From assembly GCA_965238275.1 (NCBI GenBank), contig OZ250186.1, positions 576,001 through 640,000 on the forward strand: 64,000 nucleotides of DNA. The letters run 5' to 3'. The notes under the pieces are model-generated. The model ran no database searches. It saw only the letters and a list, made by a program, of their open reading frames with translations, and was not told the origin of the DNA. The position numbers and the translations under genes are program-made. This DNA is from Nitrosopumilus sp. (GTDB lineage: Archaea > Thermoproteota > Nitrososphaeria > Nitrososphaerales > Nitrosopumilaceae). Positions 35,594 through 41,657 of this stretch are shown here, in pieces. Every line of letters begins with the position of its first letter. Position 1 is the stretch's first letter.

Positions 35594-36517
35594 CTACAGG
35601 TCGAGGGATTCCTTGAGGCCCTTGTACCTGTTTCTAATGGTAACCTCGGTGACGTTTGCCGCCTCGGCAATGTTGTGCTGTGTCTGGTTCTCGCCGTTCT
35701 TCACGCAGGACAGGTATAATGCAGCCGCTGCAAGCCCCATTGGATCCTTGCCTGCAGAGATCTCATTCTCTTGGGCCTGTCTTAGAACCGTGACTGCGTA
35801 TCTCTTTGTCTTTTCTGCGATGCCGATTCTGCTTGCAATTCTTGCAACGCATTGGATTGAGTCGGTTACAGGCATCCTCAGATCAAGCTCCTTGACAAGC
35901 AGCCTGTAGCATCTTGCAATGTCCTTCTTTTTGATGTTGGCAGCCTGTTCCACATCCTTGAGGTTTCTAGGGGTCTCCGTGTCACGGCACGAGGCATATA
36001 ATGAGGATGCCATCAGTGTTGATATGGAGCGGCCCCGGACAAGGCCCTTCTCAGGGGTCTTTCTGTAAATGTATGCTGCCTTTTCAATCACGGCATCAGA
36101 GATTGCAAGCTTGTCCTTGAGCCGGTTCAGCTCGCCAAATGCCTGTCTAAAGTTCCGATCAATGGGCTCCTGAACCTGGCTTCTGCTGTCCCACGTTCTC
36201 AGCCTCTCAATGTTATTTCTCATAGTAGCCGAAAGCGGCCTGCCTGAGGCATCCTTATTGATGGGGTTGATTATGGTTGCCAGTCCCATGTCATGCATTG
36301 TCAACGAGGTTGGCGCGCCGGTTCTTGCCCGGTCGCCGTGCTCGTCTGATGCAAACGATCGCCATTCCGGGCCTGACTCTTGCAGTTTTTCGGTGATCAC
36401 GAATTCGCATCGGGGACAGAACGTCTCCCCTGATTCGTTATCTGTGACCAGTTTTTCCCCTGCACATCTGGAACAAACCATCGCCGCCTTAATTGACATA
36501 ATTGTTTCTAGAATCAT
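35594..36517 (-). CDS. tfb: Transcription initiation factor IIB paralog
   Basis: Zinc ribbon CSRC..CPRC, GPEWRSF, HDMGLAT, GKDPMGLAAAALY, TEVTIRNRYK. Confidence 0.93.
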   Translation of the reverse strand: MILETIMSIKAAMVCSRCAGEKLVTDNESGETFCPRCEFVITEKLQESGPEWRSFASDEHGDRARTGAPTSLTMHDMGLATIINPINKDASGRPLSATMRNNIERLRTWDSRSQVQEPIDRNFRQAFGELNRLKDKLAISDAVIEKAAYIYRKTPEKGLVRGRSISTLMASSLYASCRDTETPRNLKDVEQAANIKKKDIARCYRLLVKELDLRMPVTDSIQCVARIASRIGIAEKTKRYAVTVLRQAQENEISAGKDPMGLAAAALYLSCVKNGENQTQHNIAEAANVTEVTIRNRYKGLKESLDL

Positions 36518-38755: not shown

Positions 38756-38921
38756 GAGGCCGATGCGGCCAGAAGGGTTGTAACAGACATCCATCTGGTG
38801 CGGACTCATCCCCAACAGGATTGTTTTTTGAGTCATATTTCATAATCCCGTCTGACTGCACGCATGCCATCGTGATGGGCAGGTGTGTTGAAAAAGGGAC
38901 ACGGGTCAAGGCGGGTCTTTT

Positions 38922-40463
38922 TCATATGTATAGCGGCGAGCGAAAATTCGTGCAAACAGATCTCTCTGTAGCGTGTCCTGGTGCTCTTTCCGGCGCTCTG
39001 TCAGACCTTCCAATATTGTCGTCGTTGTCGGGTCCAAGCCGACCTGTCGAATTGTTCATTCCAGAACCATCCGATCCGTGATCCTCGCGCCTTGTGACGA
39101 CCTCGACACCTGCAATGGTGCCTCCACGATTCCCGTGGGCTTGGCCGCCAGTCTCCTCCGTATGGAGACAGTCATTATCCAAAATGTTTTTTGCCGCGTT
39201 CTTGTCGGCATGGTGGCACCATCCGCATGAGACGCAGACAAATGATTCGCCGTTTCTGGACTTTTTGTCCACTATCCCGCAGGCAGCGCATCTCTGGCTT
39301 GTATGTGCGGATTCCACGCGTTTTGTAATTCCGCCCCTCTTTTTCATCTGCCATTCAACTTGGCTCCGAAACTCGCCCATTCTGGAATAGGCCATCTCGC
39401 GGTTCAACCCCGTCTTTGGGGCGGCCCCGTTGGATCTCCTCATCCTGGTCAAATCCAGGTCTTCCAGAGACGTAATCCGTAATTAGTCGTTAGGCACAAA
39501 GTGGGAATAGATGCTAGGCACGAAATGACCCAAAACTGCCTATTACGGATTATGTCTCAGGAACAATACGGACAGTCCTTTTGTTATCCGCCTGGCAATG
39601 TCGGCCTCGTTGTGTTTTTGCCTGTTTGATATCTTTTTCAATTCATGCGTTATCCTGCGGCCGATCTCTTTCCACCTTCTGGAGCCTGGCTGGCATCTTG
39701 ATCTAAATGATTTCAGCTGATCAATCCTGTCGCCGTCATGCCTCTTGCAGCCTCCGGGGACACTGTGCAGTTTTTCATTCCCATGCTCGTCTGCGACTGC
39801 CGCAAGGTGCCTGACTCCAAGATCCAGCCCTGCCTTGCATCCGCGGCCACCGCCTGTCGTGGGTTCGGGGTCTGGGACTTCTATCTGCAAATGCAGTTTG
39901 AATTCGCGATCACCATCCCTGGTCTTGCGCGTGACCTTGCCTGTGGTGTCAATCATCTGGAATGACACGAGCCTGCCTTCTGGAACCCTCGTGCGTGGCC
40001 TTACCTCCCCGAGTCCGGGCAGAAATACGGTGCCGTCGTCCCGCAGTTTTGGCTTTCCGCGTGAATTCAGCGAGCGCAGCCTGGTTGTTTTCCTGCCGCG
40101 CCTCATCAGGCTGGACGGCTCGGTCCACCTGTTGTGCTTGTACGTTTTCTTTTTCCCCAGCTTGATCTGTCTCTTGCGCCAGATGCGCTTGTTGTGCTTG
40201 AGCCGGTTTGCCTTGCGGAATTTGACTGCCGCCTGGAAAGCATGTTTTGAGGCGGCCTCATGCATGCGGACGCTGCTGGCCAGGTTGAATTCCCTGCGCC
40301 ATCCTGTTATCAGGTTGTTGACATCAAACTGTGTGATCCGTGAGTGTGCAAGTTTCATCATGATTGTCATGTCGTAAATGATGTCTGTTTCCCGGGAGCA
40401 TTTCACGATCTTGCGTGACAGTTCCCGAGATTGTGTTATCTTGATGATTTTACTGACAATCAT
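38922..40463 (-). pseudogene. tnpB: TnpB-family nuclease gene interrupted by a MITE (482 aa when restored)
   Basis: ORFs 39543-40463 (GLDLG) and 38922-39452 (TSQRCAACG..CVSCG..HADKNAAKNI) share a frame; removing 93 bp restores VLFLEDL. Confidence 0.88.
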
Positions 40464-40534
40464 ACCTGTAGTTGGGATTTATTTTCTTAAAAAAGGTGCC
40501 CAAAAAATTGCACGAACTTTCGCTTTTCACTATA
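38929..40534 (-). mobile_element. Putative TIR-bounded non-autonomous element carrying tnpB
   Basis: TATAG-N5-AGCGAAAATTCGTGCAA (38929-38955) is inverted relative to TTGCACGAACTTTCGCT-N5-CTATA (40508-40534). Confidence 0.65.
39468..39557. mobile_element. MITE D (90 bp) inserted in tnpB
   Basis: 16-bp TIRs AGACGTAATCCGTAAT and ATTACGGATTATGTCT (1 mismatch); CAG duplicated at 39465-39467 and 39558-39560. Confidence 0.9.
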
Positions 40535-40742
40535 GAAAAGGCCACAATCCCACGCGGATAGTTGTTAGTGTGTGCTTTTGTGTTTCCAGACAAGCCAATG
40601 TTTATTACATTGTAGATATACCAAATATTGCACCCGCGCTTGTTGCAAGGGAACAGGAATTTTTTGCACGCAGGAGCGTATTTTAATACCAAAATTACCT
40701 ATAAGATATTCCTTTTATTCTAAAAACGCCAATATAAGGTGA

Positions 40743-41657
40743 GTGATAATAGGGTATTTAGATAATTATGAAGGCAAGTGCGAAATTGATGCCTGCCAAA
40801 CCCAACCCACCATAACAGATTCTGAGAGAGGAGAGGTTGTGTGTGGGGGATGCGGGACCATCCTAGAGCAGAGTATGTCTGACATGTCGCATGAGGTGGG
40901 CGGTCACGGAGCAGACGAGTACATGAAACAGACAAGGACCGGACCCTCTTCATCACTGACGATGTACGACAGGGGGTTGTCAACGGTAATTGGCAGCAAC
41001 AAGGATTCTGCTGGAAACGTCCTGTCCAACGAGACAAAATACGAGTTTAGCAGGTTGCGGACATGGGATCAGAGAAGCAGGTCAAGAAGGACTGCCGCAC
41101 TGAGCAAGGCATTTACCCTGCTTCACGGAATGAAGACGAAGCTTGGAATCCCGGTCAATGTTGTGGAGTACTCAGCATACATCTACAGAAAGGCAGTCAG
41201 CGCAAAGCTTACCAGGGGAAGGACGATGGCATCGCTGGTTGCAGCGTCCCTGTATGCAGGATGCAGGGCCAACAACATTCCAAGAACGCTTGACGATATC
41301 GCAGATGCCGGGAACGTGGAGAGAAGGATACTTTCGCGGGATCTGAGAACCCTGATCAGGACGCTTGGTCTGAGCCTGAACCAGTATGACACAACGTCGT
41401 TTATCTCAAAGATTTCAAACAACATGAAACTCAAGGAGAAGACAAAGAGGGACGCATTTGATATACTCAAGCGGTGCGAGGAGGAACGGATCACGGCGGG
41501 AAAGCATCCCGTGGCACAGGCTGCAGCCTCGCTGTACATTTCATGTATTATGAACGGGGAAAAGATCAGTCAGAAAAAGTTTGCAACAGAGGCCGGGGTA
41601 AGTGACGTCACGATAAGAAACAGAATCATCCTTATCAAAAAAACGCTAAAGATCTAA
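40743..41657 (+). CDS. tfb: Transcription initiation factor IIB paralog
   Basis: GEVVCGGCG, DRGLST, RLRTWD, LTRGR, GKHPVAQAAASLY, SDVTIRNR. Confidence 0.93.
   Translation: MIIGYLDNYEGKCEIDACQTQPTITDSERGEVVCGGCGTILEQSMSDMSHEVGGHGADEYMKQTRTGPSSSLTMYDRGLSTVIGSNKDSAGNVLSNETKYEFSRLRTWDQRSRSRRTAALSKAFTLLHGMKTKLGIPVNVVEYSAYIYRKAVSAKLTRGRTMASLVAASLYAGCRANNIPRTLDDIADAGNVERRILSRDLRTLIRTLGLSLNQYDTTSFISKISNNMKLKEKTKRDAFDILKRCEEERITAGKHPVAQAAASLYISCIMNGEKISQKKFATEAGVSDVTIRNRIILIKKTLKI

Follow-up and report, generated by a model that had tools for sequence, protein, structure and literature searches.

A tnpB-only element of Nitrosopumilus with IS630-type ends that is probably mobilised in trans

The 64,000-nt stretch of a Nitrosopumilus sp. 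genome analysed here (the window; contig OZ250186.1 of assembly GCA_965238275.1, positions 576,001 to 640,000) contains, at window positions 38931-40532, a 1.6-kb element that has 25-nt terminal inverted repeats, a TA dinucleotide on each side and tnpB as its sole gene. Comparison with related loci makes it highly probable that this is a non-autonomous transposon of the IS630/Tc1/mariner type, carrying TnpB and an omega-RNA as cargo and moved in trans by IS630-family transposases resident in the same genome. An archaeal non-autonomous DDE-type element carrying an RNA-guided nuclease had been proposed in the preliminary description of the window, and this proposal is supported by the duplication of the TA, by ends that are shared with IS630 elements and by the lack of Y1 or serine transposases.

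Element ends, target sites and the probable IS630 partners

The two ends of the element form 27-nt inverted arms (38929-38955 and 40508-40534) in which 22 of 27 positions (81%) are complementary. Within the arms, a 17-nt core matches at 16 of 17 positions, with TATAG at equal spacing from it; this core pattern has two occurrences in the 64-kb window, the expected number being 0.00, and none of 100 shuffled sequences reached two. At the 4-nt centre of the core, one end has the complement, and not a repeat, of the other, as in true inverted repeats. Inverted ends that closely bracket tnpB, TA flanks on both sides and the lack of a transposase inside the element had all been claimed in the preliminary description, and all three are confirmed: besides tnpB, no other gene with a family match was found inside the element. 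The additional claim that the joined flanks resemble a hairpin is literally true but weak. Joining them does yield an 8-bp stem (dG -5.6) that only 2.4% of 500 shuffled sequences fold as well, but in an 82-nt context the structure is unremarkable, with 59% of 300 shuffles being as good.

Members of this TnpB clade were detected, at E <= 1e-60, in only 3 of 401 genomes of the taxonomic family, and its next relatives show about 33% identity or less. In the host genome, which is a single contig of 2.22 Mb that is 99.92% complete, a search with the element yielded 67 matching pieces that correspond to approximately 21 element-spanning copies plus fragments. These copies sit in different flanks, all have the same ends, and 14 of the 21 retain the whole open reading frame (ORF). 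Most are about 1516 bp long and lack positions 539-629 of the window copy, a stretch that corresponds to a miniature inverted-repeat transposable element (MITE) inserted in its tnpB gene. Read in the orientation of tnpB, every copy has the layout flank-C-TA-TAGTGAAAAGCGAAAGTTCGTGCAA...TTGCACGAACTTTCGCTCGCCGCTA-TA-flank, and the boundaries are common to the family as a whole: 18 tnpB-5' ends and 24 tnpB-3' ends were recognised in the host genome, and both ends were found at 15 of the 17 loci examined in a same-genus genome. The arms are conserved even in diverged subfamilies whose proteins are only 46-57% identical.

The TA is single in the empty site and present twice when the site is occupied in each of four comparisons, so that both the duplication and the empty sites expected from the preliminary description were observed. 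In one case, an uninterrupted paralogous gene reads GGTA-CTG-GCTGTC and the interrupted gene reads GGTA-C-TA[...]TA-GCTGTC; the original sequence here was CTA because the reading frame must be kept. In another, the orthologous site of a sister genome reads GATC-CTG-GTGGCC and the occupied one GATC-C-TA[...]TA-GTAGCC. The remaining two are insertions in the same-genus genome for which the host genome has a single TA, and one of these is exact (...ggataaac-TA-cgtcc... compared to ...ggataaac-TA[...]TA-cgtcc...). An empty site for the window copy itself was considered and abandoned because the 427-bp intergenic region at this position in the closest same-genus genome is too diverged for a base-by-base alignment. 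For three other copies, no empty site was recovered in the sister genome, where the flanks adjacent to the insertion are not conserved, and a further insertion (L115) has no alignable empty site.

The gene content of the three clade-bearing genomes, all at least 99% complete, points to the probable source of the mobility. No matches to the Pfam profiles Y1_Tnp and Resolvase (serine recombinase) were found in the host genome or in the other two clade-bearing genomes, whereas control genomes matched both profiles; a link to a Y1 or serine-recombinase TnpA, which the preliminary description had regarded as contrary to its proposal, is accordingly not seen in any of the three. DDE_3 matches number 35 in the host genome and 16 and 111 in the other two. 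Three representative 1.1-kb IS630 elements contain ORFs of 337-354 aa with HTH_32, HTH_23 and further helix-turn-helix (HTH) domains together with DDE_3, and have the ends TA|TA(G/C)TG(A/G)CG..CAAAAGTT..., such that IS630 and tnpB elements share TA|TA(G/C)TG...AAAGTT termini. With as many as 3 mismatches allowed, a 20-nt end motif was counted 54 and 88 times in the two sister genomes, where it marks tnpB elements and IS630 elements alike; the reversed control motif has no occurrences. No DDE_3 transposase is encoded within the tnpB element and the partner IS630 elements hold no tnpB. Because the DDE_3 genes lie elsewhere, the element could belong to the IS630 type only as a non-autonomous member.

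Of 20 IS630 loci retrieved from one sister genome, 17 had two recognisable ends, and in 12 of these 17 the gene-proximal end is of the TATAGTGAAAAG... type that is found at the tnpB-5' end. One of these elements is identical to the 5' end of the tnpB element at 23 of 23 nt, with its gene in the same orientation; the identical stretch comprises the adjacent TA and the outer 21 nt of the tnpB-5' repeat, aligned with the gene-proximal end of the IS630 element. The host genome has, at 1873253-1874349, an element 89% identical to this one, whose 354-aa ORF is intact and whose gene-proximal repeat differs to some extent; the IS630-family transposase of the sister genome has 363 aa. In the same-genus genome, the ends of the tnpB subfamilies with 46-57% protein identity to the window family are within 0-1 mismatch of the ends of resident IS630 elements. 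Thus, IS630-family elements with matching inverted repeats, the partner that the preliminary description had suggested searching for, are present in all three clade-bearing genomes. In two sister genomes, there are also inverted pairs of the end motif that span only 154 bp (G017, 820977-821130; G425, 1579621-1579774); by their sequence, these look like cargo-less MITEs of the same transposon group.

The TnpB protein and the omega-RNA

In the window copy, tnpB consists of two pieces on the minus strand that are in frame with each other (Table 1). The 39546-40463 piece matches Pfam OrfB_IS605 (5e-11, 43.2 bits against a cut-off of 30.5) and the 38925-39461 piece matches Cas12f1-like_TNB (2e-17, 63.7 bits against 26.3). 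Among the NCBIfam models, guided_TnpB scores 123.3 bits, which is above its curated threshold of 100, whereas IS607_TnpB (89.5 bits, cut-off 350) and IS200_TnpB (58.4 bits, cut-off 425) both remain below theirs. In an alignment of 18 family sequences, no variation is seen at D215, D390, C362, C380 and C383, and E304 and C365 occur in at least 90%; the family therefore keeps the RuvC Asp-Glu-Asp residues and the CxxC...CxxC zinc finger, and it is just before the Glu that the window copy is split by the MITE. An intact copy encodes a 481-aa protein and reads ...GLSVLFLEDLDL... (VLFLEDLDL) across the MITE site. Among solved chains, TnpB, Cas12f and a viral TnpB-like protein match the protein weakly and to a similar extent (E from 1e-8 to 1e-15). 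The core of the protein has a pN/pS (ratio of non-synonymous to synonymous divergence) of 0.23-0.28 among the copies of the host genome and is therefore under purifying selection. By profile and residues, the protein appears to be a TnpB-type (OMEGA) nuclease, with cleavage activity predicted.

The region upstream of the right end of the element has the properties of a structured RNA. Across three genomes, 12 elements were aligned over their final 280 nt; the mean column identity is 75% although the proteins of the different subfamilies are only 46-57% identical. The consensus structure obtained with RNAalifold contains 55 pairs, 26 of them with compensatory changes; 97.1% of the cells pair, compared to 32-46% when the partners are slid, and the covariation score was reached by none of 500 shuffled alignments. 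A search of Rfam gave nothing near a gathering score in 38800-40600. The first helix maps to about 39169 and the last helix ends inside the right inverted repeat, which places the scaffold on the minus strand between approximately 38931 and 39170 and coincides with the location (about 38930-39170) that had been assigned to the omega-RNA in the preliminary description. In TnpB omega-RNAs, the guide is read from the flank next to the scaffold, and on this basis the adjoining flank of the window copy is predicted to encode the guide; its role, length and exact start are deduced by analogy. Two short contigs from a size-fractionated RNA library (X17) stop at 39039 and 39130 within this region, with T-runs beyond, but contigs cannot show RNA ends.

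The scaffold overlaps the 3' part of the tnpB frame, and the ORF tail had been described as running through the right end and stopping only in the flank. This is indeed the case, the 3' piece having no stop inside the element and ending at a TGA at 38922-38924. No stop codon is found inside the element in any of 13 intact copies examined: in seven, the stop is formed by the terminal TA and the first base of the flank, in one it lies 3 nt past the element end, and in five the frame continues for 58-217 nt into the flank. The terminal TA yields a stop only when the first flank base is A or G. The match to the TnpB profile ends at residue ~398, and the synonymous divergence of residues 396-481 is below that of the core, both among the copies of the host genome (0.08-0.34 against 0.24-0.46) and towards another genome (0.39-0.44 against 0.73), whereas the pN/pS of the tail equals or exceeds that of the core in all six comparisons (0.27-0.81 against 0.23-0.48). 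Because synonymous divergence is depressed and pN/pS is equal or higher, the long tail looks like translation that runs through the RNA gene rather than a protein domain. Use of pyrrolysine, considered on account of in-frame TAG codons in homologues, was dropped given that the host genus is Nitrosopumilus and that the ORFs are called at 463-466 aa and end shortly before the element end; no search for pyl genes was made. Upstream of the ATG, an A/T-rich box (Table 1) may represent an archaeal TATA-type promoter.

Table 1. Features of the tnpB element and its flanks (window coordinates)
Feature	Position	Strand	Description
Predicted guide-encoding flank of the omega-RNA	38913..38928	-	~16 nt; adjoins the RNA scaffold and the TA
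tnpB 3' fragment	38925..39461	-	From the RuvC-II Glu onward; zinc finger, RuvC-III Asp, then a tail of ~85 aa
TA, target-site duplication copy at the tnpB-3' (right) end	38929..38930		TA at 23/24 such ends in the host genome
Terminal inverted repeat, tnpB-3' end	38931..38955		TAGCGGCGAGCGAAAATTCGTGCAA; resembles gene-distal ends of same-genus IS630-family elements
Omega-RNA scaffold	38931..39170	-	~240 nt; overlaps the 3' tail of the tnpB frame and abuts the right end
MITE in tnpB	39468..39557		90 bp; 16-nt inverted ends; CAG duplicated at 39465-39467 and 39558-39560; contains in-frame stops
tnpB 5' fragment	39546..40463	-	306 aa with the RuvC-I Asp; ended by TAA 39543-39545 inside the MITE
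A/T-rich box, possible promoter	40478..40494	-	TTTTTTAAGAAAATAAA on the gene strand; ~15-30 nt upstream of the ATG; conserved in copies
Terminal inverted repeat, tnpB-5' end	40508..40532		TAGTGAAAAGCGAAAGTTCGTGCAA on the gene strand
TA, second target-site duplication copy at the tnpB-5' (left) end	40533..40534		TA at 17/18 such ends in the host genome
Candidate target-adjacent motif (TAM) flank	40535..40537	-	T-T-C on the gene strand (T-N-C, then TA)

Other TnpB-related loci are more distant. A second TnpB-like match in the window, at about 1067-1594 on the plus strand, has 31% identity over query residues 212-398 (E 1.9e-10) within a 406-aa open frame, and a scan for inverted ends around it found none. 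Another TnpB family, 33% identical (1130185-1131612 in the host genome; loci L120 and L121), has different inverted ends, GGGAATTATATAC..., which match 18/24 in the host genome and 23/24 in a record titled Cenarchaeum. TnpBs with inverted-repeat ends may thus be common in this archaeal family, as far as these sequences indicate. A scan of JGI metagenomes returned only two distant relatives (28-32% identity) that lack useful context, and a scan of the genome collection returned only the same-genus genome and two relatives with 28-29% identity in the Cenarchaeum-titled record. The ORFs on either side of the element (35594-36517, minus strand, 307 aa; 40743-41657, plus strand, 304 aa) appear by eye to be paralogous transcription factors of the TFIIB type, having a zinc ribbon and cyclin folds.

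Mobility, the one-sided flank motif and alternative explanations

All copies of the clade are tnpB-only. A single DDE_3 gene (889457-889867) is located between the halves of a tnpB copy, but it belongs to a block of approximately 5.9 kb that was inserted into that copy. The window copy is inactive as a nuclease gene owing to the MITE, while its ends and RNA region are still whole. The insert, which is not mentioned in the preliminary description and has 22-nt inverted arms in the window copy, belongs to a family with 12 copies in the host genome that have the inverted ends AGACGTAATCCGTAAT... and 3-bp duplications of varied sequence. Three MITE copies lie inside tnpB elements, namely, in the window copy, in a sister copy (genome position 643115) and near the 5' end of the copy at 1821558-1823163. 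The sister copy, 27 kb downstream, shares this MITE and 99.8% identity with the window copy, but both of its flanks are different. Because this MITE-bearing twin has different flanks, a copy with a dead tnpB has moved, which implies that the movement was driven in trans. The sister copy (genome 642577-645963) further contains, inside its 5' inverted repeat, a repeated element of approximately 1.8 kb that is flanked by an 8-nt direct duplication, CGAACTTT.

The host genome is, in general, very rich in insertion sequences, with 298 merged repeated regions and multi-copy transposase families of the IS5-like (DDE_Tnp_4), IS66, rve and DDE_Tnp_1 types; 8 of the 20 multi-copy ORF families scanned have no Pfam match. 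The element is represented, at 92-99% identity, in contigs from four RNA libraries of two studies, where these contigs attest to the presence of the sequence only, and contigs from two of the libraries join 39466 to 39561, that is, correspond to the MITE-less form. DNA sequencing runs (X1-X16) contain the element as well.

These observations are compatible with the following scheme. The element is delimited by two inverted repeats of ~25 nt and inserts at a TA, which becomes duplicated; its cargo is limited to tnpB and the omega-RNA, which appear to stand where the transposase gene would be. The IS630-family (HTH and DDE_3) transposases of ordinary 1.1-kb elements in the same genome would bind the same termini and mobilise the element in trans. 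The tnpB gene would be read from the left repeat; the omega-RNA scaffold is encoded by the terminal ~240 nt, which extend as far as the right repeat, and the guide would be supplied by transcription continuing into the flank. TnpB loaded with this RNA would then cut the unoccupied insertion site (T-N-C-TA and the flank), and recombinational repair would copy the element back. Such copying back by recombinational repair after TnpB cutting has been demonstrated for IS605 elements.

The TAM in this scheme is suggested by a marked asymmetry of the flanks. At all 18 recognised tnpB-5' ends of the host genome, the TA is preceded by C, and 14 of the 18 also have a T two positions beyond this C; all 15 such ends of the same-genus genome likewise have the C. 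At the tnpB-3' ends of the host genome, the base that follows the TA is G in 10 cases, C in 9, A in 4 and T in 1 (n=24), and the mirror G is thus found in 10/24, with 7/15 in the same-genus genome; the difference between 18/18 and 10/24 is significant by Fisher's test (p = 4e-5). The IS630 elements of the sister genome, by comparison, have C before TA at both ends (15/17 and 16/17), indicative of a C-TA-G target. In both empty sites that allow this C to be read, it is part of the target. From this conservation, T-N-C-TA is the preferred candidate for the TnpB TAM. When the site is occupied, the 3' junction has CTATA ahead of the flank, which differs from T-N-C-TA at the C position, so the donor site would be spared whereas the empty site would be cut.

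It is possible, although this suggestion is tentative, that the one-sided motif is a footprint of TnpB. In that case, the IS630 transposase would prefer the palindrome T-N-C-TA-G-N-A and TnpB would have adopted a half-site together with the duplicated TA (T-N-C-TA) as its TAM, such that only insertions with the tnpB-5' end at a good half-site are protected or copied through RNA-guided cutting of the empty allele. This would explain why the C is fixed at this end while the other end drifts. Alternatively, the asymmetry may arise because the acting transposase has a weaker target preference, to which some orientation effect is added. If the footprint interpretation is true, a cut-and-paste DDE transposon of an archaeon is also served by RNA-guided homing, and this would be a prokaryotic counterpart, and possibly a forerunner, of Fanzor in Tc1/mariner elements.

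Several observations weigh against mobilisation in trans by IS630 transposases or against parts of the scheme. The best-matching intact IS630 element of the host genome has 3-4 mismatches to the tnpB ends within the first 20 nt, and all that this genome has of the exactly matching end is an 85-nt fragment at 1082170. One-sided conservation of the tnpB flanks is not expected from a symmetric transposase by itself. The TA duplication is equivalent, in sequence, to the insertion of a TA-ended element 3' of C-TA, and the two cannot be separated from the sequences alone; duplication is preferred here because the ends are common to IS630 elements. As regards the RNA, the single-sequence fold of the region is unexceptional (z = -1.3), and the RNA evidence consists of assembled contigs, which cannot show transcription, strand or ends.

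One alternative is that the shared ends result only from common ancestry or a shared host factor, the resident IS630 transposases being inactive on the tnpB elements, which would be moved by another enzyme or would now spread only by recombination. The lack, in the host genome, of an intact IS630 element with ends identical to those of the tnpB element is consistent with this view, and so are the multi-copy ORF families without a Pfam match, one of which is an antisense ORF in the tnpB element (a 392-aa antisense ORF from a sister copy has no Pfam match). It is nevertheless improbable, considering that the insertions are in unrelated flanks with precise TA duplications, that a dead copy has moved, that tnpB and IS630 elements of three genomes have identical or almost identical outermost 20-23 nt, the part on which IS630-type transposases act, and that MITE-sized 154-bp pairs of the same ends exist in two genomes.

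An affiliation with IS200/IS605, in the form of an IS1341-like, tnpB-only element that moves as single-stranded DNA, inserts 3' of a fixed C-T-A and has a terminal TA of its own and incidental inverted repeats, would account for the fixation of C-TA on the 5' side only (18/18 and 15/15) with a variable 3' flank, this being the pattern of insertion 3' of a target; the empty sites fit it equally well, and the combination of tnpB alone with an omega-RNA at the 3' end is that of the IS1341 type. This affiliation is, however, very unlikely given the lack of a Y1 transposase in the three clade-bearing genomes, ends made up of true ~25-nt inverted repeats and not of similar hairpins on a single strand, the presence of the same ends around IS630 transposase genes and the low score of the IS200_TnpB model (58 bits against a cut-off of 425). 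An origin from IS607 appears hardly credible. Crossover by a serine recombinase would leave a 2-nt repeat at both junctions, and the TA could be such a crossover dinucleotide; among the named TnpB profiles, moreover, IS607_TnpB scores best (89.5 bits compared to 58.4 for IS200_TnpB). However, that score is far under the model cut-off of 350, no Resolvase-domain gene is present in the three genomes, and IS607 elements, as characterised in the available text of PMC13565253, lack inverted repeats and are mostly GG-ended.

Relation to known systems

Explanations of TnpB usually invoke the scarless single-strand transposition of IS605, and the role of TnpB in a cut-and-paste DDE transposon is much less clear; the same situation exists for the eukaryotic Fanzors. 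The preliminary description took TnpB to be normally confined, in prokaryotes, to IS200/IS605 or IS607 elements, a view that is out of date in the light of the prokaryotic TnpBs linked to IS630 or other DDE transposases and bounded by inverted terminal repeats that are described in the accessible part of PMC10691335. According to this study (Altae-Tran et al. 2023), there are six DDE-associated TnpB branches, all with inverted terminal repeats; in the DDE-6 branch, TnpB is linked to IS630 transposases and an HTH protein, with symmetrical ends, and the ends of solo TnpBs nearly match those of transposase-bearing systems. Prokaryotic TnpBs that are associated with DDE transposases (ISL2, IS630, IS1031) and bounded by inverted repeats are also identified in the available text of the review PMC13565253, which takes them from PMC10691335 and in which IS200/IS605 elements are described as having neither inverted repeats nor duplications, IS607 as likewise having neither, and IS630 as duplicating TA. 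The literature search found no paper that joins TnpB, IS630 and Nitrosopumilus. Accordingly, the kind of system is already known, IS630-linked TnpB with symmetrical ends having been described in 2023, and the archaeal member is new. What is particular here is the occurrence in hosts of the genus Nitrosopumilus, the lack of a cis transposase throughout the clade, and a defined TA duplication, RNA and candidate TAM.

The family has been recently active in Nitrosopumilus-genus archaea, reaching up to ~21 copies per genome, and shows that tnpB-only elements filed by default under IS200/IS605 can, if the interpretation preferred here is right, be passengers of IS630-type transposons. The one-sided target motif makes the role of TnpB in a cut-and-paste transposon testable, with the parts for such an analysis being defined: the 481-aa protein, the ~240-nt scaffold, the predicted guide position, the predicted TA-containing TAM and the candidate transposases.

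The closest counterpart is the DDE-6 branch, in which, as far as the accessible text of PMC10691335 goes, TnpB is likewise found in an IS630-type element with symmetrical inverted ends and has its 3' end near the transposon end; there, however, the transposase, the HTH protein and TnpB share one element, whereas here no transposase is encoded in cis, and the hosts here are archaea of the genus Nitrosopumilus. The solo TnpBs of the DDE branches, with ends of the transposon type, are also presumed in that text to be moved in trans. The elements resemble the IS1341 type in their size of ~1.5 kb, in having tnpB as the only gene with an omega-RNA that overlaps the 3' end of the ORF at the right end, and in the many copies with no transposase nearby, but differ from it in the 25-nt inverted repeats, the TA duplication, the ends shared with IS630 and the lack of a Y1 TnpA in the genome. 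MITEs of the IS630 family similarly consist of inverted repeats with a TA duplication and depend on a transposase in trans; they do not, however, carry a cargo such as the 1.45 kb found here, which comprises a nuclease gene under purifying selection and a guide RNA. Finally, in Fanzor1 of the Tc1/mariner elements, a nuclease of the TnpB family also resides in a TA-duplicating element with inverted repeats, and the duplicated target may be part of the TAM, as indicated in the available text of PMC13565253. The protein of the present element, in contrast, is prokaryotic, with a compact core of ~400 aa and a read-through tail, and no special sequence closeness to Fanzor was seen in the comparison with profiles and solved chains.

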